A stretch of DNA of 64,000 nt from an uncultured Erysipelotrichaceae bacterium (GTDB lineage: Bacteria; Bacillota_I; Bacilli_A; RF39; UBA660): NCBI GenBank assembly GCA_902793375.1, contig CADBDE010000004.1, positions 20,799 to 84,798 on the forward strand, in the 5' to 3' direction. A program made the position numbers and the translations under genes. Below the pieces are notes generated by a model, which was not told where the DNA came from, ran no database searches, and saw nothing but the letters and a program-made list of their open reading frames with translations. Positions 4,480-20,810 of this stretch are shown here, in pieces (positions within the stretch are counted from its first letter, which is position 1; the number at the start of each line of letters is the position of its first letter).

Positions 4480-6258
4480 CTAATTTAACGCATACCATAT
4501 TTTTGCAATATCACTATTTTGACTATAAGGTTCTGGATCTGGCTTGTCCATCTTAACAGACACAGGAACCTTAAATGCACTACCAAATGCAATTGCATTA
4601 CCTGGTTGAAGTGTTTTTAGAATTGCCAAAACTTCATCAGTAACATTTGGAACCATATCCTTTATATATTGTAAATCTCTTGGATGTAGTGTTCTTAATA
4701 CCATAAAGTTTGAACATTGCGAAATACTTGTTTCACTTAGTTCACTCGGCCTTTGTGTAATAAGTCCTAAAATAACACCATATTTTCTTCCTTCTTTTGT
4801 AATTCTATCAAAAATATTATACCCAAGTAGATCTTGATCTATATCTTTTTGAACATATCTATGTGCTTCTTCAATTATTATATGAAATGGATATTTTCCT
4901 CTTGAACTAGCACTCGTTGAAACATCAAATAACAATTTAGATATTATTTTTGTAATTGCTTTTGCTGTTCTATCATCTATATAATTAATGTTAAATCCAA
5001 TTAATTGAGCTTTTTTATTATCATGAGTTGTTAATAAATCTCTAACATATCCTCCTTTATTTACCATTTTAGGATATGAGAAATATTCATTATATTCACT
5101 ATTTGCTAATGAATGAAGTCTTACTGAAAGAACATTTGCATAATCAAACACTTTGTCACTTTTTAATACTCCTTCTGATATTAATGAAAACTCCAATGCT
5201 TGCTCCAAATCAGAAAGATTATACATTATGTCTCCAGTTGGTGTTGGAATTTCAAATCCATCTATTAGAAATGTTTGAATATAACTAACAACTAATTCCA
5301 TTTCTTGCATTTTTCCTGAATTATCTACATAAATACATTGTTTTAGTGTTCTTATATAACCTGGTTGTACTATTTCGCTTTCAAGATTTAATAAATCTGT
5401 ATTAAATGTTGTTAATACTGCTGTTATTTGATCTCGTATTTTTATTGAATCTTTTCCACTTTGCAATATATCTAATAATGCTCTTGCAATAATATCATTT
5501 TTACATTTTATGGCTTCTTCATCAGTTCCTTTTAATATTGGAACAAGTTTCAAAGCCTTTTCTATTATAGGTAATTGACTTGGATCATTAGCATTTAATA
5601 AAAGTGCAATATCATCAACACCTAATAACCATAAAGGAATTCTTAATAAGTCTGTATCTGTCGACTCAACATTTGTTGTATAGGCTTTATAATTTAATTC
5701 TGGATTGAAATCATGTAAAAATGAAAAAGCATTTTTATATTCTCCATATGCATCAAACACAAATATACTTGCATTTACTGGTAAATACTTTGATCCTTTA
5801 AATATGTTTTGTACAATTCTTGCAAAAGTACTACTTTTACCACTACCAGTATTACCTAATATTGCAAAATGATTACTAAAAAAATCATTAACATTAACAT
5901 TAATTTTATAGCCATTATATATTGAAGATTTTCCAAGATAAATGTGATTACTATCATCTACTTCCTGAGGTCCCAAAACTTGAGTTAATTCTTCTTGATT
6001 TATTATTCTAACTTGTGAAGCAAAAGATGGTTTAATTCCTATACCTGGTATAAAAACATTATTAAGTATTTCACCAACTATTCCTATCGTTATAGCAGAT
6101 ACTGTAACCTTTAATATTTCACCAACTATTCTTTTATTTCCATCATCAAAAACGACATGAACATTCATTAAATTTCCATATTTTGATACATCAAAGTTTA
6201 TTTGAACAACGACATAATTTCCACTAATATCAATAATTTTGCCTATATTCCCTATCAT
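4480..6258 (-). CDS. HerA-like (DUF87) P-loop ATPase
   Basis: Walker A motif AILGNTGSGKSST and Walker B motif PFHIIIEEAHRYV. The N-terminus looks like a HAS-barrel (IGKIIDISGNYVVVQI...). These are HerA/FtsK-superfamily features. Confidence 0.6.
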   Translation of the reverse strand: MIGNIGKIIDISGNYVVVQINFDVSKYGNLMNVHVVFDDGNKRIVGEILKVTVSAITIGIVGEILNNVFIPGIGIKPSFASQVRIINQEELTQVLGPQEVDDSNHIYLGKSSIYNGYKINVNVNDFFSNHFAILGNTGSGKSSTFARIVQNIFKGSKYLPVNASIFVFDAYGEYKNAFSFLHDFNPELNYKAYTTNVESTDTDLLRIPLWLLGVDDIALLLNANDPSQLPIIEKALKLVPILKGTDEEAIKCKNDIIARALLDILQSGKDSIKIRDQITAVLTTFNTDLLNLESEIVQPGYIRTLKQCIYVDNSGKMQEMELVVSYIQTFLIDGFEIPTPTGDIMYNLSDLEQALEFSLISEGVLKSDKVFDYANVLSVRLHSLANSEYNEYFSYPKMVNKGGYVRDLLTTHDNKKAQLIGFNINYIDDRTAKAITKIISKLLFDVSTSASSRGKYPFHIIIEEAHRYVQKDIDQDLLGYNIFDRITKEGRKYGVILGLITQRPSELSETSISQCSNFMVLRTLHPRDLQYIKDMVPNVTDEVLAILKTLQPGNAIAFGSAFKVPVSVKMDKPDPEPYSQNSDIAKIWYALN

Positions 6259-6323
6259 ATTCTCACCTATTCTACTTAATTATACCATAAAATAAAAAAA
6301 ATATATATAAATATATACTTTTT

Positions 6324-7598
6324 CTATTTAGAAATGCCAATTACATATGAATAATTGTCAAATAAAATATCTTTTCTAACTTTTTCAATATCTTTTAAAT
6401 CTAAACTTCTTATTAATTCAATTTTATTATATAATACATCATCATAGTCAATTAAATCTTTTACTATAGAATTTAAAACTTTATATGGCTTATCTGAATC
6501 CATTACCTCTAAAGATATTTTTACTTTTTTTACTCTTTCAACATCTTCTTTGGTTATTTTTGTATTTTTCAAACAATTTATAATCTCATTTTTTATTTCT
6601 TTTGGATTTTTTGTTTCCATTAAAAACTCTATTATAACAATGTTATCAATAATAGAACTAGAACTATAGAATAATGTACATAATTCTTTTTTATATACAT
6701 TTTCTCTAAATTCAGAGGATATTCCAAACAAAACATACAATAATATATTTAATGATACTTCATATTTAAACTTTTTTATAATATCAGATTCATCAATTTT
6801 ATATTTAAAAGACAATACGGTTTTGGTTATCATTAAGTTCTTTATTTTTACTTCTTTTTCCTTTGTTTTTACTTCAAGAGGTTCATTAATAATAACTGGA
6901 TTCTTTTTTATTGATTTTTTTCTTGAATTTAATTTTTTGTTATTTTTTATTACTTCGATAAGTTTATTACAATCTATATTACCAGAAGCAATTAAAAACA
7001 TATTACTTGGCTGATAAAATGTATTATAGCAGTCATATAAAACTTCTTTAGTTATTTTTCTTACACTACTAGGGGTACCACCAATATCTATTCTCATTGG
7101 ATGCCTTACAAATACTGCTTTATTACTTTCATCATATAACCTGTTTTCTGGTTGATCTTTATACATATTTAATTCTTCTATAATAATGTCTTTCTCTTTT
7201 TCTACATTTTCATCAGTAAAATATGGACTATTTACATAATTTAATAAGAAATCCATATTTTTTTCAATGTCTTTTATTCCTTCAACCGTATATGAAGTAA
7301 AATCATAGCTTGTTGAAGCATTAGCATCACTTCCAGATTCTGAAAAGAAAGAAAAAGGATCTTTTTCATCTTCTTGCTCAAACATTTTATGTTCAAGAAA
7401 ATGAGCTGTTCCATATGGAATTTTAATTTTCTTATTATCATCAGATTTAAACTCTAATACTTTTGCACCATATTTAACACCATATTCAATATAATAATTC
7501 TTTCTATTAGAAAATGGTATTAAAAAAACTTCTAAACCATTTTCGAGTTTTTCATAAAAAACATCTACATCTATTCCTTTTATTTCTTTTTTTATCAT
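6324..7598 (-). CDS. M16-family zinc peptidase (insulinase-like), active-type subunit
   Basis: Carries the inverted zinc-binding motif HFLEHKMFE (HxxEH) near the N-terminus. It forms a pair with the next ORF, overlapping it by 4 nt. Confidence 0.7.
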   Translation of the reverse strand: MIKKEIKGIDVDVFYEKLENGLEVFLIPFSNRKNYYIEYGVKYGAKVLEFKSDDNKKIKIPYGTAHFLEHKMFEQEDEKDPFSFFSESGSDANASTSYDFTSYTVEGIKDIEKNMDFLLNYVNSPYFTDENVEKEKDIIIEELNMYKDQPENRLYDESNKAVFVRHPMRIDIGGTPSSVRKITKEVLYDCYNTFYQPSNMFLIASGNIDCNKLIEVIKNNKKLNSRKKSIKKNPVIINEPLEVKTKEKEVKIKNLMITKTVLSFKYKIDESDIIKKFKYEVSLNILLYVLFGISSEFRENVYKKELCTLFYSSSSIIDNIVIIEFLMETKNPKEIKNEIINCLKNTKITKEDVERVKKVKISLEVMDSDKPYKVLNSIVKDLIDYDDVLYNKIELIRSLDLKDIEKVRKDILFDNYSYVIGISK

Positions 7599-8857
7599 TT
7601 TTTATCACCCCCTAATAAATAAACTGTATCTATAAAAATTTTATTAGCTAGTGACATTATATCTTTTTTTGTTACTTTTTCTATTTTCTTTTTTCTTTCT
7701 TCTAATGTATCTATTCCTAATTTATCAATTGCATAGTAAGAAGCAATTATTTGACTTGGATTATCTTCTATTTCATCTAATGCAGAAATATAATATTTTT
7801 TGGCTTTATCAATATCTTCTTCATTAAAATTACCATTTTTCATATCTGCCATTTCTTTTTCAATCAAAATAAGCATTTTATTAAAATTTTCTTTATTAAT
7901 TCCAGATGAAATAATAATTAAATTATCAAGTTTATATGCACTAGAAACAACATAATAACATAAAGAAAATTTTTCTCTAATATTCTTAAAGAATTTTGAA
8001 TCTGCACTTCCACCAAGAATAATATTATAAATATTTAAAACATAATTTTTTTCATATTTTGTAAGATTCTCTAATGAACATGCAATAGACAATTTGGCTT
8101 GATTTGTATTATCACTTTCAACTATTTTTTGTATCTTTTTTCTATGAGGTTTGTAATCAACTACTAGATCATTAATTAAATCTTTTTTGTTATTAAATAC
8201 TAGCTTTTTACTAATTATTTTTTCTACATAATCAAAATCGATATCTCCAATTATAAAAATATCTATACTATTATTTTTTATAAAGTATTTATAATACTCA
8301 AAAAGTGTTTTAGGTGTAATCTTTTCTAAATCATCAAGATATCCCTTTAAGTTATATGAAAATGGAGCATCTTTATCATAGTATTCTAACAATTTCAAAG
8401 TACTATAACTTCTTTGATCTTCCTTAAATCTTTCAATTTGTGATTTTTCATTATTTTTTACAATAGAAAAACTTGTTAAGTCAAATTCATTATTTTTAAT
8501 ATTTGGATTAAATATTATTTCATATAAAAAATCGATAGCTTTTTCAAGTAATCCATTTTCTGTGTATTTATCATTCAATACTCTCATATTAAAATCAATA
8601 TTGTATTTTTTACCTAATCTATATCCATTAGCAAAAACACTTGTTGCATATAAGTCTTCTGCTTTCTTTGAAAAAGCAATTTTTGTATTATATTTCTTTG
8701 TTGAATAAGTTAACATTGTAGATAAAAAATTATTGAGAGTAATATACTCTTTTTTTATTGGACCACTAAATATTACTTCTATATTTATAGATTTAAATTT
8801 ATTCGTTTTAATCATATGAAGATTATAAGATGATAAGTCTTTTTTTATGTAATCCAT
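7595..8857 (-). CDS. M16-family peptidase-like partner subunit (no HxxEH motif, probably non-catalytic)
   Basis: Similar size and tandem arrangement with the HxxEH-containing M16 protein, as in YmfF/YmfH-type pairs. It lacks the zinc-binding motif. Confidence 0.5.
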   Translation of the reverse strand: MDYIKKDLSSYNLHMIKTNKFKSINIEVIFSGPIKKEYITLNNFLSTMLTYSTKKYNTKIAFSKKAEDLYATSVFANGYRLGKKYNIDFNMRVLNDKYTENGLLEKAIDFLYEIIFNPNIKNNEFDLTSFSIVKNNEKSQIERFKEDQRSYSTLKLLEYYDKDAPFSYNLKGYLDDLEKITPKTLFEYYKYFIKNNSIDIFIIGDIDFDYVEKIISKKLVFNNKKDLINDLVVDYKPHRKKIQKIVESDNTNQAKLSIACSLENLTKYEKNYVLNIYNIILGGSADSKFFKNIREKFSLCYYVVSSAYKLDNLIIISSGINKENFNKMLILIEKEMADMKNGNFNEEDIDKAKKYYISALDEIEDNPSQIIASYYAIDKLGIDTLEERKKKIEKVTKKDIMSLANKIFIDTVYLLGGDKK

Positions 8858-14510: not shown

Positions 14511-14539
14511 ATTATACTAGCAAAAAAAAGGAAATACAA
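14511..14539 (-). promoter_or_regulatory. candidate sigma-A promoter for ftsA (-35 TTGTAT, 17-nt spacer, -10 TATAAT)
   Basis: The minus strand reads TTGTAT-(17 nt)-TATAAT, ending about 17 nt upstream of the ftsA ATG. Confidence 0.4.
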
Positions 14540-14540
14540 G

Positions 14541-14575
14541 TTTATTTAAAACAAAAAAGAGCTTTCGCTCTTTAT
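14541..14575 (-). terminator. Rho-independent terminator ending the bacteriocin-like operon
   Basis: The minus strand reads AAAGAGC-GAAA-GCTCTTT followed by TTTGTTTT. It overlaps the stop codon of the 51-aa ORF. Confidence 0.5.
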
Positions 14576-14727
14576 AAATAAACTACAATGGTATATAAGT
14601 TTCTTAAAAAAGTTCCTAAATAAGTTCCTAAATTGAAAATACATATCGCTAAAATATTCAAAACATAAAGAATTATTGGAGAAATAAGTATTTTAAGTAT
14701 CGTCTTCTTATTATCTAAGACATACAT
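14572..14727 (-). CDS. 51-aa hydrophobic membrane peptide, candidate bacteriocin immunity protein (absent from ORF track)
   Basis: My translation is MYVLDNKKTILKILISPIILYVLNILAICIFNLGTYLGTFLRNLYTIVVYL. Its ATG overlaps the TAA stop of the upstream precursor peptide as TAATG (plus strand catta, 14725-14729). The ORF ends inside the terminator stem. Confidence 0.45.
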   Translation of the reverse strand: MYVLDNKKTILKILISPIILYVLNILAICIFNLGTYLGTFLRNLYTIVVYL

Positions 14728-14924
14728 TACTTTATTTCGCACAATTTATCTTCCTTTATTCTTCTAAATGAATTTCCTAAACTTCTTCCAAAATCATATA
14801 CTGTTTTTATGGCATCAGTAAAAGCATTTATTATAGTTCCTGTTATAGATATTCCACCATCTATTTCTCTTAGTTCATTTCTATTAATTTTATTCATTAC
14901 ATTTTTTTGGTCTAACATATCCAT
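14727..14924 (-). CDS. double-glycine-leader peptide 1 (bacteriocin-like precursor)
   Basis: The leader MDMLDQKNVMNKINRNELREIDGG fits the consensus ending EL..I.GG. The 41-aa core is ISITGTIINAFTDAIKTVYDFGRSLGNSFRRIKEDKLCEIK. An AGGAG ribosome-binding site lies 6 nt before the ATG at 14922-14924. The track's first codon at 14927 is TTG. Confidence 0.65.
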   Translation of the reverse strand: MDMLDQKNVMNKINRNELREIDGGISITGTIINAFTDAIKTVYDFGRSLGNSFRRIKEDKLCEIK

Positions 14925-15033
14925 CAATTACTCCTATTAAAAATACTGCTCCTGCAACTATTCCTGCCACTCCAAGCAAGCTTATTCCACCACCATCTAT
15001 TTTTTTTAATTCATCTTTGCTTATTTCTTTAAT
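14890..15033 (-). CDS. double-glycine-leader peptide 2 (bacteriocin-like precursor, no canonical start codon; absent from ORF track)
   Basis: My translation is (I)KEISKDELKKIDGG followed by GISLLGVAGIVAGAVFLIGVIDGYVRPKKCNE, ending in a TAA stop. The core is glycine-rich with GxxxG motifs. The frame opens directly after the TGA stop of the accessory gene (CAT ATT AAA...), so the only possible start is ATT at 15031-15033, preceded by AAAGGGGGAA. It overlaps peptide 1 by 35 nt. Confidence 0.45.
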   Translation of the reverse strand: MKEISKDELKKIDGGGISLLGVAGIVAGAVFLIGVIDGYVRPKKCNE

Positions 15034-15036
15034 ATG

Positions 15037-15462
15037 TCATTCCCCCTTTGCTATTTTAATTAAATATTCAAAGAATGTTGTTTTATTAGTAATTATTTTC
15101 ATATTAATAATATTGTTATTTATAAATAAATGCTTTGGAATTTTATCAAATTCTAATATTACTTCATTAAATGAAGAATTTATATCTTCTAATTCATTTA
15201 TTTTTAAAACTTTATAAGTAAATATGTTCCTTTCTATCATTGTTTTATTATTATCAATAATATTATTTAATTCTTCTTTATTGACAATTAAAGATACATT
15301 GTCATCAATTACTATTCCACTACAAATATAATAATCTTCCAATTTATTATAAAAAAATGAAATTACTAACATTATGATTATAAAAATAGATACCACTATT
15401 ATGTAAGGTCTTAAATTTATATCACGTATTTGAAAGTTTTTTTGAAATATTTCTATATTCAT
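15037..15462 (-). CDS. bacteriocin-export accessory protein (small, single transmembrane helix)
   Basis: About 141 aa with one transmembrane helix (PYIIVVSIFIIIMLVISFFY), placed between the C39 ABC transporter and the peptides. I chose the ATG at 15462 because of a GGAGGAG ribosome-binding site, although the spacing is short. The track's start at 15525 is TTG. The gene overlaps the ABC transporter's 3' end by 41 nt. Confidence 0.45.
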   Translation of the reverse strand: MNIEIFQKNFQIRDINLRPYIIVVSIFIIIMLVISFFYNKLEDYYICSGIVIDDNVSLIVNKEELNNIIDNNKTMIERNIFTYKVLKINELEDINSSFNEVILEFDKIPKHLFINNNIINMKIITNKTTFFEYLIKIAKGE

Positions 15463-17521
15463 ACTCCTCCAAATTATAAATTTTATCATATAAATCACTA
15501 TTATCAAATCTATGGGATATGACAATTATTGTCTTATCCTTATATTTTTCAAAAATGTTCTTTAGTATTACTCTTTCTTTTTCAATATTTATCTGACTAA
15601 ATGTTTCATCAAGTATGTATATGCTACTATTTTTTAAAAATGATCTAGCAAGAATAATTCTTTGCCTTTCACCTCCACTTATATTACTAGCATTTTCTTC
15701 AAGTAGCATATTATATCCATTCTTATTATTTTTGATTATTTCATCTATTAACATACATTTACAAATACTTGCTATTTTATTAATGTCACGTGTTTTTCGT
15801 AAATTAATATTTTCTAGTACTGTATTATTAAAAACATATTCATCTTGTGAAACATAAGTAATTTGTTCTCTTAGGTTCCATAAATTTATGTCATTTATAT
15901 CAGTTTGTCCAATAAATACTTTGTTTCTTTTTGTTTGTAAATAACCAGCTATAATTTTAGCGAATGTACTTTTTCCACATCCTGAATTTCCAGTAATCAA
16001 CACTTTATCTCCTTCCGTTATAGTCAAACTTAAATTGTTTATTACATAATTATCATTATACTTAAAGGATAAATCTTTAATAATAATATTTCCTTTTATA
16101 TTTTTTATTGGATTAATATCCAAAAACAGTTTTTCTTCTTTTATGTTTAATAATTCATTTATTCTTTCAATAATAATCTTTGTTTTCTTATATAATATAT
16201 CAAAATTTAAAATGTTTTTTAAAGAAGATATATTATAAAAAATAATTGCATTAAATGAAATTAAACTAGATAGTTTCATTTTTTCATTAATTACCAAACT
16301 TCCTCCAATAGTAAAAATAATTAATGAAATAATGCTTGTTGTCAAATTGTCTACTGTTCTTTTATTATTTAGTTTCTTTGTAAAATTGTAACTTATATTT
16401 AGATAATTATTATAAACAAACGAAAATTCTTCTTTAACTTTTCCCAGAATATTAAGTCCTTTTATTGTGTTTATTCCACTTATTAATTCAATAATTAATG
16501 AATTAATTTTTGAATTTTTTTCTTTTAGTTCTTTAATATCATAATAAATAATTCTATTAAATATTATTGTAAATATTGAATATAGAAATAGAATTAATAA
16601 TGATATAACAAATAGTGTTTTACTAATGGATAATAGTGCTATAACTGTTACAATTGTAATCATTAAATCGACAAATATTGTTAATATAAAATCACTCAAG
16701 ATTTCCTTTAATTCATCTAAATCTGATACTCTTGATAATACCTCACCAGTGGTTCTATTTTTAAAATATAAATGAGGAAGTGAAAGAATATGGTTAATTG
16801 AATCATTTATCAAAATATAATTCATTTTGTGTGTTAGAAATAATAATACCTTTTCTCTACTATATTCTAAATAATTTTTTAGAAAATATATAAACAAAAA
16901 TAAGAAAGAAATAAAATAAATATTATTAATTGATTTTATAGAAAGAGCCTTATCAATTATGATTTGAAAATTGAAAGAGATTAGAAGATTAGTTATTGTA
17001 AAAACTAATGAGAACAAAAGTAGCATGATTATTATATTTTTATTATTTAAAATGAATTCAATTATTTTTCTTTTTATAGTATTTTCATCTTTCATAATTG
17101 GAATCGATTTGTTGGGAATAAATAATAAATAATTATTTGTTGAAATTGACTTAAACTTATCAATATCAAGCTTTATTATCCCTCTTGAAGGATCTGCTAT
17201 AGTAATATAATTATTTTTTCTATCTATTTTGTGAATAACAATAAAATGCTTATACTTTTTATCAATTATCACATGTGCTATACAAGGAAGATATTTGTCA
17301 TCAAGTTTTAAAATATCTCCTTTTACACCTTCAGTGTAAAAACCAAGTTTTTTTCCTGCGTCTAATAGTGATAAAGCATTAACACCATCAAAATTAGTAT
17401 TAGTTATATTTCTTAAATACTCTTTAGAAACCACTCCTCCGTATGATTTTATAATCGTAAGTAAAGAACATATACCGCAATCTTTTGGTCCATCTTGTAA
17501 AACACATTCATATTTTTTCAT
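15422..17521 (-). CDS. peptidase-C39-domain ABC transporter (bacteriocin/peptide processing and export, LagD/ComA type)
   Basis: The N-terminal C39 domain carries the catalytic cysteine in QDGPKDCGICSL. Six transmembrane helices follow, then Walker A GNSGCGKST, the ABC signature LSGGERQRI and Walker B IYILDE. Confidence 0.85.
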   Translation of the reverse strand: MKKYECVLQDGPKDCGICSLLTIIKSYGGVVSKEYLRNITNTNFDGVNALSLLDAGKKLGFYTEGVKGDILKLDDKYLPCIAHVIIDKKYKHFIVIHKIDRKNNYITIADPSRGIIKLDIDKFKSISTNNYLLFIPNKSIPIMKDENTIKRKIIEFILNNKNIIIMLLLFSLVFTITNLLISFNFQIIIDKALSIKSINNIYFISFLFLFIYFLKNYLEYSREKVLLFLTHKMNYILINDSINHILSLPHLYFKNRTTGEVLSRVSDLDELKEILSDFILTIFVDLMITIVTVIALLSISKTLFVISLLILFLYSIFTIIFNRIIYYDIKELKEKNSKINSLIIELISGINTIKGLNILGKVKEEFSFVYNNYLNISYNFTKKLNNKRTVDNLTTSIISLIIFTIGGSLVINEKMKLSSLISFNAIIFYNISSLKNILNFDILYKKTKIIIERINELLNIKEEKLFLDINPIKNIKGNIIIKDLSFKYNDNYVINNLSLTITEGDKVLITGNSGCGKSTFAKIIAGYLQTKRNKVFIGQTDINDINLWNLREQITYVSQDEYVFNNTVLENINLRKTRDINKIASICKCMLIDEIIKNNKNGYNMLLEENASNISGGERQRIILARSFLKNSSIYILDETFSQINIEKERVILKNIFEKYKDKTIIVISHRFDNSDLYDKIYNLEEYEYRNISKKLSNT

Positions 17522-17626
17522 CTTTCACCTCCTCAATTAGATTATTATTCTTTTCTTATCAAATTTCCCCAATTTTTTGAATATTTTTTTATTTTTTTAT
17601 GTTATAGTATTATTCGAGGTGTAAAT

Positions 17627-18307
17627 ATGAAGTGCCCAAAATGTAATAAAGTAATTAAAAAAACTGATAAAAATTGTAGATTTTGTGGAGTAGAATTTGA
17701 GAATAATAAAGAAAAGACTATCATAAAAACACAAATAATATACAAAACTATTGAAAATAAAGCTAATAAGTGGTTAATTCTTATTATTGGAGTTCTATCA
17801 TTTTTAATTATTTTAGAATCATCATTTATGATATGGTACTTTTTTATTAATAAACCTATAATAGATAATAAAAAAATAATTGAAGATTATAATTATAAAG
17901 AAATTCTTCCATATGAAATATATAATACTAATGAACAATTTGAATTTGATAATTTAAAAATATCAATTTTAGATAAATTTGAGATATTTAAACTTGATAA
18001 TACATATTCTATTTATAATGGAAAAAACATCATTAAAATCCCAATTAGTATTACAAATATAAGTGATACAAATCATGGATTAAACTTATTCTATTATGAT
18101 ATTTTTGATGATACAGGAAATAGTATTGATGAGGTTGCTGGTTATTATGAAGAATCATTGTACTATGCCGAAGATTTAAAAAAGGATTCATCATATACCA
18201 AATACATCTATGCATTATACTTTGGAAATGATTCTTATATAATTAGATTAAAGAACAAAGAAAAAGAAATATTTGTTAAATATAATATAAAAAACTTGAC
18301 TAACTAA
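17627..18307 (+). CDS. zinc-ribbon membrane protein with an extracellular domain
   Basis: N-terminal CPKCN...CRFCG zinc ribbon, one transmembrane helix (WLILIIGVLSFLIILESSFMIWYFF), then a beta-rich extracytoplasmic domain. Confidence 0.45.
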   Translation: MKCPKCNKVIKKTDKNCRFCGVEFENNKEKTIIKTQIIYKTIENKANKWLILIIGVLSFLIILESSFMIWYFFINKPIIDNKKIIEDYNYKEILPYEIYNTNEQFEFDNLKISILDKFEIFKLDNTYSIYNGKNIIKIPISITNISDTNHGLNLFYYDIFDDTGNSIDEVAGYYEESLYYAEDLKKDSSYTKYIYALYFGNDSYIIRLKNKEKEIFVKYNIKNLTN

Positions 18308-18356: not shown

Positions 18357-18818
18357 ATGTATACAAAAGAAAAACTAGAATCAAAAGAAAGTTTAAGACT
18401 ATATAGATATATTGGTAATTATGGATTAAAAACTTTAATAAAAATTGAAGAAACTCTTGCAAAAAGCAGTGTTAATAGAGATTTAAATATAAATCTTAAT
18501 AAAGAATCATTTGTTACTAGAGATAATTCAATGCATTATACAAATACTGTTTATCTAAACAATGATGGAACATATTTAATTTCCAACATAACAAAAACTA
18601 AGGGAATAAATCTATTAGATATTTCTTTAGAACTTGGAAAAGAAGGATATGATTATTCTACAGGAGAAAGATATCAAAGAAGACAAGCAAAAGTAGAATA
18701 TATTTATGAAAATGATAAAATTGAATTAAAAAATATTGAAGATGAATTATTCTATAATGAATTAGAAGAAAAAAAGAAGAATGAAATAAACAAAAGAGTT
18801 ATTTCTTTAAAAAAATAA
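18357..18818 (+). CDS. hypothetical protein (153 aa)
   Basis: Intact ORF with a GGGG ribosome-binding site, followed by a strong terminator. No motif recognised. Confidence 0.4.
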   Translation: MYTKEKLESKESLRLYRYIGNYGLKTLIKIEETLAKSSVNRDLNINLNKESFVTRDNSMHYTNTVYLNNDGTYLISNITKTKGINLLDISLELGKEGYDYSTGERYQRRQAKVEYIYENDKIELKNIEDELFYNELEEKKKNEINKRVISLKK

Positions 18819-18929: not shown

Positions 18930-19003
18930 TGGAGCGGACAAGGGGAATCGGACCCCCACACTAACCTTGGCAAGGTCATATTCTACCATTAAATCATGTC
19001 CGC
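18930..19003 (-). tRNA. tRNA-Gly (GCC)
   Basis: The minus strand reads GCGGACATGATTTAATGGTAGAATATGACCTTGCCAAGGTTAGTGTGGGGGTCCGATTCCCCTTGTCCGCTCCA. It has a 7-bp acceptor stem, anticodon loop TTGCCAA, a T-loop GGTCCGATTCC and a CCA end. Confidence 0.85.
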
Positions 19004-19012
19004 AAAAAAAAA

Positions 19013-19086
19013 TGGAGGGCCTAGTCGGATTTGAACCAACGCTCGGGGAGTTGCAGTCCCATGCCTTACCACTTGGCTATAGACCC
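19013..19086 (-). tRNA. tRNA-Cys (GCA)
   Basis: The minus strand reads GGGTCTATAGCCAAGTGGTAAGGCATGGGACTGCAACTCCCCGAGCGTTGGTTCAAATCCGACTAGGCCCTCCA. The anticodon loop is CTGCAAC, there is a TTCAAAT T-loop, and the acceptor stem pairs. Confidence 0.85.
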
Positions 19087-19154: not shown

Positions 19155-20810
19155 TTACTCCCCTTCTTTTTCATCATCTTTAACTGTATTATCTTTAATA
19201 ACATAAGTAAATACTTTATCTCTAATAACAAAATCTAAATATATTTTATCTGCTAATTTTAGTTTGTCTCTAACTTGAATTAACGCATAATCATTAGTGT
19301 AATATGGGGTAACATCATCAAGTTCTAATCTATTATTATATTCTTTTCCTTTAACTTCAAATCTAATTGATCCAAATTTTGAAATAAATTCATCATTTGT
19401 ATATTTCTTTCCTAACACATCATAATCAAAATCAATCTTATAATTTAATCTTAGTAATGTTAAATCAAATTTTTCAGTTGTTTTAGCAGTAATTGTTTTT
19501 TTAGAATTAATGCATGAAGAATTACTACACTTAATAACATTATAGGAAAAATTATCATTCAAACTTATATCATTTATTGTTATTTTTGTATTTCCTAATA
19601 TACTACCATCAAAAGATAATTCTTTTCCAAGTGTTTGTGTTGTAACATAATCTAATTTATCGTTAAATGTAGTTGGAGATAATCTAACTTTTTTATATTT
19701 GTACTTTAATTCATTTTTTTCATAATACATATCATATAGATATTTTAAAGTAAAATTCTCATCATAATATTCTACTGGTATTTCATATATAAAATTAAAT
19801 ATTCTAGATTCATATGGTTTTATAATTTGACTAAAATAATTAACACCAAATTCAGTGAATTTAGAATTTTCACTGGTAATTGGAGATATTAATTCATAAT
19901 CTCCATAACTAAGTCTTATTTCATTTTTGTCAATTGTATAATCATATGATTGATTATTATTTATTTCAATTTTGGTAATTAAATAAAAATAATCTGAGTT
20001 AAGTTTATTTCCAAAATTATTAGTCTTTGTTTTGTAACTATCTAATACTTTTACCTTTAAAGAATTTGCTTCAAAATATTGATTTTGCTTATAAACTTTT
20101 TCAATACCTGTTACTACTTTTGCTAAAGATAATACTATTACACATCCAACTATTATTTCTAATGTTGTAAAAATATATTTGTTTTCTTTATAAAAATATT
20201 TTGTATATCTTAATCCTTTTCTAATCTTTGCTTTTATTTTATCTTTATCAATTTTTAATTCAAATTCATATTCTTCATTATCTTTTTGTTCAACACCTAA
20301 ATCAAGCAAATCTTTTTTAAAATCAAATTTTGTTACATCAAATCCAAATGCCCTTACAAAGCACATTATCATAACAATAACATTTAATACCATTGTTGAT
20401 CTAAATAAATCTCTTATAATACTGATAAATCTTATACTTTGAGAAGTATATGCTAAGTCTGGTAAAAATGAAGTCATCCATATAATTAATATAGTCAAAA
20501 CTATATAGAAGATTAACATAAAAGTATATAATCTATCTTTTTTCTTTTTATAGTTTAATAAGTAAATAATTGCCCCCGTTAATAATGTCATAAGTAATGA
20601 TACAAGTAAGAATGAAATAGAAGCATATTTAGGTCCTACAGAAGAAGCTTCTTCCATAGTTATTCCATTTTTTATATATGAACCAAAAAATGATACTAAA
20701 GAATTAGTTTTAAGCATTAAGAAAAGAGCACCCATTAATAGTAATGCGTGAATAATTCTAAAATGTTTTACTAAAAAGGCATATGGTCTTCTAAGTATCA
20801 TCACAATCAC
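19155..20810 (-). CDS. polytopic membrane protein with a large extracytoplasmic C-terminal domain
   Basis: About 5 N-terminal transmembrane helices followed by a roughly 330-aa Tyr/Asn/Lys-rich extracellular domain. No family assignment. Confidence 0.45.
   Translation of the reverse strand: MIVMILRRPYAFLVKHFRIIHALLLMGALFLMLKTNSLVSFFGSYIKNGITMEEASSVGPKYASISFLLVSLLMTLLTGAIIYLLNYKKKKDRLYTFMLIFYIVLTILIIWMTSFLPDLAYTSQSIRFISIIRDLFRSTMVLNVIVMIMCFVRAFGFDVTKFDFKKDLLDLGVEQKDNEEYEFELKIDKDKIKAKIRKGLRYTKYFYKENKYIFTTLEIIVGCVIVLSLAKVVTGIEKVYKQNQYFEANSLKVKVLDSYKTKTNNFGNKLNSDYFYLITKIEINNNQSYDYTIDKNEIRLSYGDYELISPITSENSKFTEFGVNYFSQIIKPYESRIFNFIYEIPVEYYDENFTLKYLYDMYYEKNELKYKYKKVRLSPTTFNDKLDYVTTQTLGKELSFDGSILGNTKITINDISLNDNFSYNVIKCSNSSCINSKKTITAKTTEKFDLTLLRLNYKIDFDYDVLGKKYTNDEFISKFGSIRFEVKGKEYNNRLELDDVTPYYTNDYALIQVRDKLKLADKIYLDFVIRDKVFTYVIKDNTVKDDEKEGE

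Follow-up and report, generated by a model that had tools for sequence, protein, structure and literature searches.

A putative two-peptide bacteriocin operon with a non-AUG start for one peptide upstream of ftsA in an uncultured member of the Bacilli

The DNA analysed here is a stretch of 64,000 nucleotides (nt) of contig CADBDE010000004.1 (the window), which derives from an uncultured member of the Bacilli and has a guanine-plus-cytosine (GC) content of 26%; identical DNA is also present in metagenome assemblies of ENA, and the closest genomes in GTDB are metagenome-assembled genomes of rumen, caecum and human gut. Between positions 17521 and 14546 of its minus strand lie five tightly packed genes and a terminator. 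The genes encode, in this order, an ATP-binding cassette (ABC) exporter with a C39 peptidase domain (C39-ABC), an accessory protein, two short precursors with double-glycine leaders (peptide 2 and then peptide 1) and a small membrane protein. Our analysis indicates that this is probably a producer operon, complete in itself, for a class IIb-like bacteriocin made of two peptides in an uncultured low-GC member of the Bacilli from gut or rumen. The observations that carry this reading are the domains and catalytic residues of the exporter, the leaders of the two peptides, the position of their start codons, the conservation of the module and the selection acting on the peptides. An initial annotation of this DNA had proposed a five-gene cassette without a regulator, and the proposal was borne out by family matches, by conservation of the module in many genomes and by purifying selection on both peptides.

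Operon layout and the two peptide precursors

A strong ribosome-binding site (GAGGAGGTGA) stands immediately 5' of the exporter ATG and a -10-like block (AATAATAAT, with AATAAT) lies upstream of the operon. Alignment of seven orthologous upstream regions showed that both are conserved, and a promoter 5' of position 17521 is offered as a consensus-level guess. At the other end of the operon, a terminator scan placed a hairpin at 14573..14556 (AAAGAGC-GAAA-GCTCTTT) followed by a T-run, with a fold energy of -8.5 kcal/mol (z = -2.5), and an equivalent hairpin is found 3' of the small open reading frame (ORF) in all relatives, in agreement with the terminator recognized in the initial annotation. 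Much of the rest of that description was also upheld. The accessory ORF, which runs from ATG 15462 to TGA 15039-15037, does overlap the ABC gene by 41 nt, and the overlap is conserved in orthologues; TAATG is present at 14729-14725; the cores given for peptide 2 (32 amino acids, aa) and peptide 1 (41 aa) can both be read in the sequence; and two of the five genes are indeed absent from gene tracks, as public gene calls on the same DNA comprise the ABC, 141-aa and 65-aa genes only and miss peptide 2 and the small ORF. A six-frame scan of the 64 kb returned these two double-glycine-leader peptides only. Searches of Rfam with the window returned tRNAs only, and Pfam and NCBIfam domain searches found no kinase or response-regulator domain in the neighbouring ORFs.

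The junction between the accessory gene and peptide 2 had been described as a same-frame stop and start. The junction is present, TGA (15039-15037) being followed by CAT and ATT (15033-15031), but the absence of a canonical start for peptide 2 had gone unremarked. After the TGA the same frame reads CAT ATT AAA and encodes IKEISKDELKKIDGG and then GISLLGVAGIVAGAVFLIGVIDGYVRPKKCNE, and neither ATG nor GTG nor TTG occurs in this stretch 5' of the double-glycine (GG) site. The ATT is the second codon past the accessory TGA, at 7 nt from the GGGGGA upstream of it, and every locus of the clade has a conserved AAGGGGGAA or AAAGGAGAA, always 7 nt upstream of the -15 codon. From this arrangement and from the orthologous DNA compared below we conclude that translation of peptide 2 starts at ATT 15033, giving a 15-aa leader, (M/I)KEISKDELKKIDGG, and a 32-aa core, GISLLGVAGIVAGAVFLIGVIDGYVRPKKCNE, which consists of a hydrophobic helix and a polar tail and contains one Cys. 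Gene finders miss peptide 2 because its start is ATT. Initiation is most likely assisted by the ribosome-binding site and coupled to termination 3 nt upstream. A start at the ATG that overlaps the TGA (ATGA) was rejected, as this ATG is in another frame and gives an ORF of 3 codons.

The start of peptide 2 was compared among orthologous loci (L numbers). The result showed that the -15 codon across 14 loci is ATG in five, ATT in five, TTG in two, and ATC and ATA in one each; in three of the five ATT loci (L003, L004 and L025) the start is an ATG at -18 and the ATT is an ordinary Ile codon. The codon two after the stop is ATG in L008, L010 and L017, TTG in L011 and L013, ATT in the window and L012, ATC in L007 and ATA in L009, and all of these codons can initiate under translation table 11. 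Leu at -15 is encoded by TTG in both cases; Leu at -7 is encoded by TTA or CTA in 13 of the 14. At the level of accessory-protein clusters, an Ile codon occupies the start position in at least 14 of 27.

These data bear on the possibility that peptide 2 is decaying in this genome, its start having mutated to ATT, so that peptide 1 alone is made and the locus is a one-peptide system or a cassette being lost. The lack of ATG, GTG or TTG upstream of the GG site, the skipping of peptide 2 by gene callers and the fact that ATT is a weak initiator in E. coli and model bacteria would all accord with decay. However, the Ile codon recurs at the start position in the clusters mentioned above, with ATT, ATC and ATA in separate lineages, and the ribosome-binding site and its 7-nt spacing are conserved. 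In addition, comparison of the core with the ATG-start orthologue of L008 showed 13 synonymous changes and 1 non-synonymous change, with a ratio of non-synonymous to synonymous change (pN/pS) of 0.03, and pN/pS was 0.18 in comparison with the ATT-start orthologue of L012. By these measures the peptide 2 core is under strong purifying selection, and we regard its decay as quite improbable.

A second alternative is that the TGA is read through, or decoded as Trp, so that the accessory protein and peptide 2 are made as one 189-aa fusion and the C39 domain frees the core from it. It draws on frames that are continuous across the TGA in most of the clade, on the leakiness of a TGA-C context and on the presence in public databases of 186-190-aa 'accessory-W-peptide' proteins, including one from this sequence (among proteins P0002-P0030). 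Genetic code 4, in which TGA specifies Trp, was rejected, as the real genes of the window follow code 11: they have no in-frame TGA, Trp is encoded by TGG, and several of them, including ftsA and the ABC gene, end in TGA. Since TGA is a true stop in the window, the 186-190-aa fusions are an annotation artefact, produced by gene calls under code 4 on short low-GC contigs. Moreover, the accessory protein and peptide 2 are in different frames in L003, L004 and L018, where the ATG of peptide 2 overlaps the accessory stop, and the junction stop of L010 is TAA, indicating that readthrough is not the conserved mechanism. The C-terminus of the accessory protein is also predicted to be on the outer side of the membrane, and so at a distance from the peptidase in the cytoplasm. 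The TAA and frame-shifted junctions, together with this topology, largely refute the fusion, which was rejected as scarcely credible. Initiation of a separate peptide 2 at ATT is the reading retained here.

Peptide 1 consists of a 15-aa leader, MNKINRNELREIDGG, and a 41-aa core, ISITGTIINAFTDAIKTVYDFGRSLGNSFRRIKEDKLCEIK, with one Cys, and ends at TAA 14729-14727. The conserved start, ATG 14897, gives the 15-aa leader and an 8-nt overlap with peptide 2 (ATGAATAA). The alternative start, ATG 14924, is that of the called 65-aa ORF and gives a 24-aa leader and a 35-nt overlap; the 35-nt overlap given in the initial annotation holds from this ATG only. Conservation of ATG 14924 is uninformative because it lies within codons forced by the conserved IDGY of peptide 2. 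In L003, L004 and L010 an in-frame stop lies upstream of the proximal Met, and this Met, GRSLG, RR and the Cys do not vary among 44 close homologues. When 1.84 billion representatives were searched with a profile, 366 clusters at 50% identity were returned, most of them 52-57 aa long and starting at the proximal Met. The mature 41-aa core is identical for either start, and peptide 1 is under purifying selection. No Pfam or NCBIfam model of the peptide 1 core was found, leaving a large family with no curated model. An AlphaFold model of peptide 1 was helical only, with a predicted local distance difference test (pLDDT) score of 61, and was too low in confidence to be used as evidence.

In L007 (7540-7600), the ATG of peptide 1 is one base out of frame within an A7 run, the in-frame -15 codon is ATA, and the start of peptide 2 is ATC. 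Two explanations are possible: non-AUG starts of both peptides in this locus, or a homopolymer that reflects an assembly error or a slippage site.

A membrane ORF of 53-58 aa with the motif N.GTYLGTFLR lies 3' of peptide 1 in every complete locus, so that the small hydrophobic ORF first described at this place is both present and conserved. It has one hydrophobic segment (residues ~13-45). The 51-aa start at TAATG that had been assigned to it is less likely than GTG 14742, which gives 56 aa and a 16-nt overlap and is most likely the start. The small ORFs of L009, L011 and L013 have no ATG, and the conserved GTG/ATG is formed by the Leu-Cys codons of peptide 1. By its position the ORF is assigned as a putative immunity protein.

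Exporter and accessory protein

Pfam searches identified Peptidase_C39 (4.7e-30), ABC_membrane (3.9e-29) and ABC_tran (1.2e-26) in the exporter, which consists of a C39 peptidase, a six-helix membrane domain and an ATPase. Its best solved relative is PCAT1 (4ry2), aligned over the full length with E 5.5e-100, and the homology to ComA of Streptococcus (8hf4) is also full length (E 6.9e-95). The peptidase residues Gln9, Cys15 (DCG), His92 (HF.VI) and Asp (ADP motif) are in register with PCAT1 and ComA, and intact Walker A, signature and Walker B motifs are present. NF045998, the model of the Mbov_0121 family, also matched over the full length, with 300.6 bits against a cut-off of 500. By architecture the exporter is a peptidase-containing ABC transporter (PCAT), but a member of neither curated subfamily, TIGR01193 or Mbov_0121, because its scores lie under both cut-offs.

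The accessory protein has one N-terminal hydrophobic anchor, with a hydropathy peak at residues 15-40, and its AlphaFold model (pLDDT 76) comprises this anchor and one small beta-rich domain. Its 31 homologues are all unnamed, and Met1 is invariant among them. A Pfam search found no HlyD domain in the protein, and 141 aa are too short for the full beta-barrel, lipoyl and coiled-coil architecture of the LcnD/ComB type. The 126-position NCBIfam model MAG1140 (NF045999) was matched end to end, with 17.7 bits against a cut-off of 35; a weak match to this model is also found in 8 of 26 accessory homologues (9 of 27 with the window protein), with a best E of 3e-4. Between the window and L018, pairwise BLAST of the accessory proteins was not significant (22% identity, E 0.59), and the two are equated by position and size only. 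A metagenome scan with the accessory alignment yielded three loci only, exact-protein look-ups being more productive. The model suggests that the protein is probably a cut-down outer-face partner of the exporter, an analogue of the HlyD-type accessories.

Conservation of the locus and its surroundings

Relatives whose FtsA is 74-77% identical carry the five-gene module upstream of ftsA; in L005 (61%), nothing but peptide 1 and the small ORF is left at this place. Firmicutes that are more distant have the same module upstream of rpsU, and among these cases is a contig of 913 kb that also carries sporulation genes. Its order and sizes are kept (exporter, 140-156-aa accessory, 47 aa, 55 aa, 53-58 aa), and the peptide pair is adjacent in every related locus examined. 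A tblastn search of 72,556 plasmids gave no match to either peptide. The initial annotation had viewed the cassette as inserted between ftsA and the tRNA-Gly/Cys pair. The location is correct on the ftsA side, but two plus-strand ORFs separate the operon from the tRNA pair (18930..19086). The idea of an insertion is not supported by the synteny: because the cassette lies in the same place upstream of ftsA in relatives, it is an old, stable syntenic locus. Recent insertion or horizontal transfer was rejected on this ground, and the low GC of the ABC gene (17-21%) is shared by other membrane-protein genes of the window.

A core function of these lineages may be considered instead, in which the peptide pair serves a non-killing role as a self- or kin-directed membrane or signalling factor. 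The place of the module is fixed, upstream of ftsA (with the remnant in L005) and by rpsU in other Firmicutes, and the peptides are more conserved than the transporter: when the window (14572-17521) is compared with L023 (1946-4990), the peptides are 57% and 44% identical, the exporter 38% and the accessory protein 34%. PCATs are also described as exporting peptides of varied function (PMC7018657). Pheromones and other double-glycine peptides are among the cargo of such exporters. On the other hand, no sensor kinase or regulator lies nearby, and cores of 32 and 41 aa, one of them a full hydrophobic helix, together with GxxxG motifs and a small membrane protein of their own, characterise pore-forming class II bacteriocins rather than pheromones. 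In some strains peptide 2 is disrupted by a mobile element, implying that it is dispensable. A non-killing role is in our view unlikely, and a bacteriocin is the preferred function of the pair.

The disruption was seen in two host backgrounds (L014 ~1610-1640 and L016 ~668-693) and in P0006, where peptide 2 is cut right after the GVIDG codons by identical foreign DNA; L013 (6328-6474) and L017 (1962-2108) served for comparison. Genes for a helix-turn-helix protein, ParA, ParB and a surface protein with a SpaA domain are present in the interrupting DNA, and the interruption points to site-specific integration of a mobile element. In L005 (3488-5185), a large serine recombinase (Resolvase, Recombinase, Zn_ribbon_recom) lies immediately 5' of the peptide 1 homologue and could be the opposite boundary of an element of this kind. 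The same locus has, at 5624-7792 between the remnant of the cassette and ftsA, a protein of 722 aa that carries a prepilin-type N-terminal methylation motif and DUF285 repeats, the latter typical of Mycoplasma.

Directly past the operon terminator, at 14511-14539 of the minus strand, TTGTAT and TATAAT are separated by 17 nt. The block cttgt.ttt...ctagtataat is conserved in relatives, suggesting that this is probably the promoter of ftsA and that ftsA would not be fed by the bacteriocin operon. The coordinates of the operon and of the nearby genes are given in Table 1. The two plus-strand ORFs are transcribed divergently from the operon, before the tRNA pair, and ORFs of similar size and position (223 and 158 aa) lie beside the cassette in L013.

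Table 1. Features of the putative bacteriocin operon and of neighbouring genes in the window
Feature	Position	Strand	Basis or description
Upstream region of operon	17522..17626	-	Holds ABC-gene ribosome-binding site and AATAAT block
ABC exporter (PCAT by architecture), 699 aa	15422..17521	-	Pfam domains and structure alignment
Accessory protein, 141 aa	15037..15462	-	Homologues, hydropathy, AlphaFold model
GGGGGA ribosome-binding site of peptide 2	15041..15046	-	Read directly from sequence
Peptide 2 precursor, 47 aa	14890..15033	-	TIGR03949/TIGR01847 scores, orthologue alignment, selection
Peptide 1 precursor, 56 aa	14727..14897	-	Homologue alignment, profile search
Small membrane protein, 56 aa (51 aa from ATG 14727)	14572..14742	-	Conserved position and motif
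Intrinsic terminator	14546..14573	-	Terminator scan and fold energy
226-aa protein	17627..18307	+	Zinc ribbon, membrane segment, weak DUF5067-like domain
153-aa protein	18357..18818	+	No family match
551-aa membrane protein	19155-20810	-	Weak DUF4352 match

Proposed function and comparison with known systems

Class IIb systems are defined by adjacent peptide genes, an immunity gene, an ABC gene and an accessory gene, and their leaders are of the double-glycine type with 15-30 residues (PMC2850506). The window shares with them adjacent peptide genes in one operon, the type and length of the leaders, the ABC transporter and the GxxxG motifs. The dedicated leader-cleaving ABC transporter is represented by a C39-ABC protein in the same operon, with conserved catalytic residues and predicted cleavage. 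Both 15-aa leaders conform to the double-glycine consensus: positions -4, -7, -12 and -15 are hydrophobic, position -8 is Glu, and 15 is the commonest leader length in both peptide families. GxxxG motifs, which had been noted at the outset, are confirmed in both peptides (GIVAG and GVIDG in peptide 2, GRSLG in peptide 1) and are invariant in the alignments. Peptide 2 scored 17.2 on TIGR01847 (cut-off 15.7) and also narrowly attains the cut-off of TIGR03949, the class IIb model of the lactobin A/cerein 7B family, on which its relative P0081 scored 26.3 bits; the match of peptide 1 to TIGR03949 is confined to the leader. The peptide 2 family amounts to 1540 protein clusters, which are mostly unnamed, a few being named 'lactobin A/cerein 7B family class IIb bacteriocin' by the source databases.

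The single Cys noted earlier in each core was confirmed and proved nearly invariant across both families. In the family samples, 131 of 134 relatives (peptide 1) and 113 of 116 (peptide 2) have a Cys in the last 8 residues, mostly as the only Cys of the core. The conserved pair fits an inter-peptide disulfide, and other thiol roles are possible. A literature search found no intermolecular disulfide in two-peptide bacteriocins, and we know of no class IIb system with an inter-peptide disulfide.

Several points weigh against a two-peptide bacteriocin. A literature search on the peptide motifs found nothing, and no characterised homologue was found. The score of peptide 2 on TIGR03949 is marginal (21.6 bits, cut-off 21.5), and the exporter scored 408.3 bits on TIGR01193, under the cut-off of 523.85. 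The small ORF matched no Pfam or NCBIfam family and none of the known immunity families. The best PDB matches of the accessory model, the membrane-fusion proteins BesA, MacA and Spr0693, are weak (E 7e-3, 80 columns, root-mean-square deviation 3.4). Bacteriocins usually diversify fast, and peptides that are better conserved than their transporter, in a stable core locus by housekeeping genes, are atypical of them. Finally, a weak ATT start would be expected to unbalance two peptides that a class IIb system needs in about equal amounts, and the literature search found no AUU starts in bacteriocin genes.

If the operon does produce a two-peptide bacteriocin, one transcript would run from upstream of 17521 to the terminator at 14573-14546. 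The 141-aa anchored protein would be translationally coupled to the exporter and is probably its outer-face partner, and peptide 2 would initiate at ATT 15033, helped by GGGGGA and by ribosomes terminating at the TGA. The cytoplasmic C39 domain would recognise both 15-residue double-glycine leaders and cut after GG, and the exporter would then secrete both cores, a hydrophobic one of 32 aa from peptide 2 and an amphipathic, cationic one of 41 aa from peptide 1. Outside the cell, the peptides would probably pair helix to helix via GxxxG in the target membrane, possibly stapled by a disulfide between the conserved C-terminal cysteines, and the 56-aa membrane protein would protect the producer. 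It is in this sense that we infer export, synergy, antibacterial activity, immunity and the disulfide.

A bolder reading, which is possible but which we hold only tentatively and with some doubt, is that the operon represents a widespread, undescribed two-peptide family. Its chains would be joined extracellularly by a disulfide linking their single conserved C-terminal cysteines, its PCAT would work with a membrane-fusion-like partner of 140-156 aa, its genes would form a core locus at ftsA or rpsU, and in about half of the clade its hydrophobic chain would be initiated from AUU, AUC or AUA by termination-reinitiation. The analysis adds to the two-peptide bacteriocins an uncharacterised and widespread candidate pair, whose chains number at least 366 clusters (peptide 1) and 1540 clusters (peptide 2) in the databases, and the exact predicted mature sequences are now open to synthesis. 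The predicted masses are 3229.8 Da (average) for the core of peptide 2, 4635.3 Da for that of peptide 1 and 7863.1 Da for a disulfide-linked pair. It also reveals an annotation trap, in that a start at ATT, ATC or ATA in many genomes causes peptide 2 to be missed, or to be fused to the accessory protein under code 4. The single Cys per chain and the miniature accessory protein are testable departures from textbook class IIb systems, and non-AUG initiation is likewise accessible to experiment.

Among known systems, the lactobin A/cerein 7B family (TIGR03949) resembles peptide 2, which aligns with it over leader and core; however, the C-terminal motif GVIDG[YF]V.P.KC of peptide 2 defines a distinct subfamily of 1540 clusters. 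PCAT1 of Clostridium thermocellum (4ry2) and ComA (8hf4) share with the exporter the three-domain layout and the aligned catalytic Cys, His, Asp and Gln, but the window exporter lies under the TIGR01193 cut-off and, whereas the partner of ComA is the large ComB, it is paired with a mini accessory protein. The two Mycoplasma families of the Mbov_0121 peptidase ABC transporter and of MAG1140 resemble the window in the full-length match of the exporter and the end-to-end match of the accessory protein, although both scores are far under their cut-offs (300 vs 500 and 17.7 vs 35). A literature search found no published function for the Mycoplasma pair. The likeness suggests a possible 'exporter plus mini accessory' module shared by low-GC Bacilli and Mollicutes.

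The closest comparison as a whole is with class IIb operons such as that of lactococcin G (PMC2850506), with which the window shares adjacent double-glycine peptides, GxxxG motifs, a small membrane protein in the immunity position and a C39-ABC exporter with an accessory protein. The window operon differs in its gene order, with the transport genes first, and in its accessory protein of 141 aa in place of a HlyD-type protein of ~450 aa. Its peptide 1 falls outside the described families, both peptides carry a single near-invariant Cys at the C-terminal end, the chromosomal locus is syntenic and stable, and there is neither a pheromone nor two-component regulation. Taken together, the architecture is that of a known kind of system.

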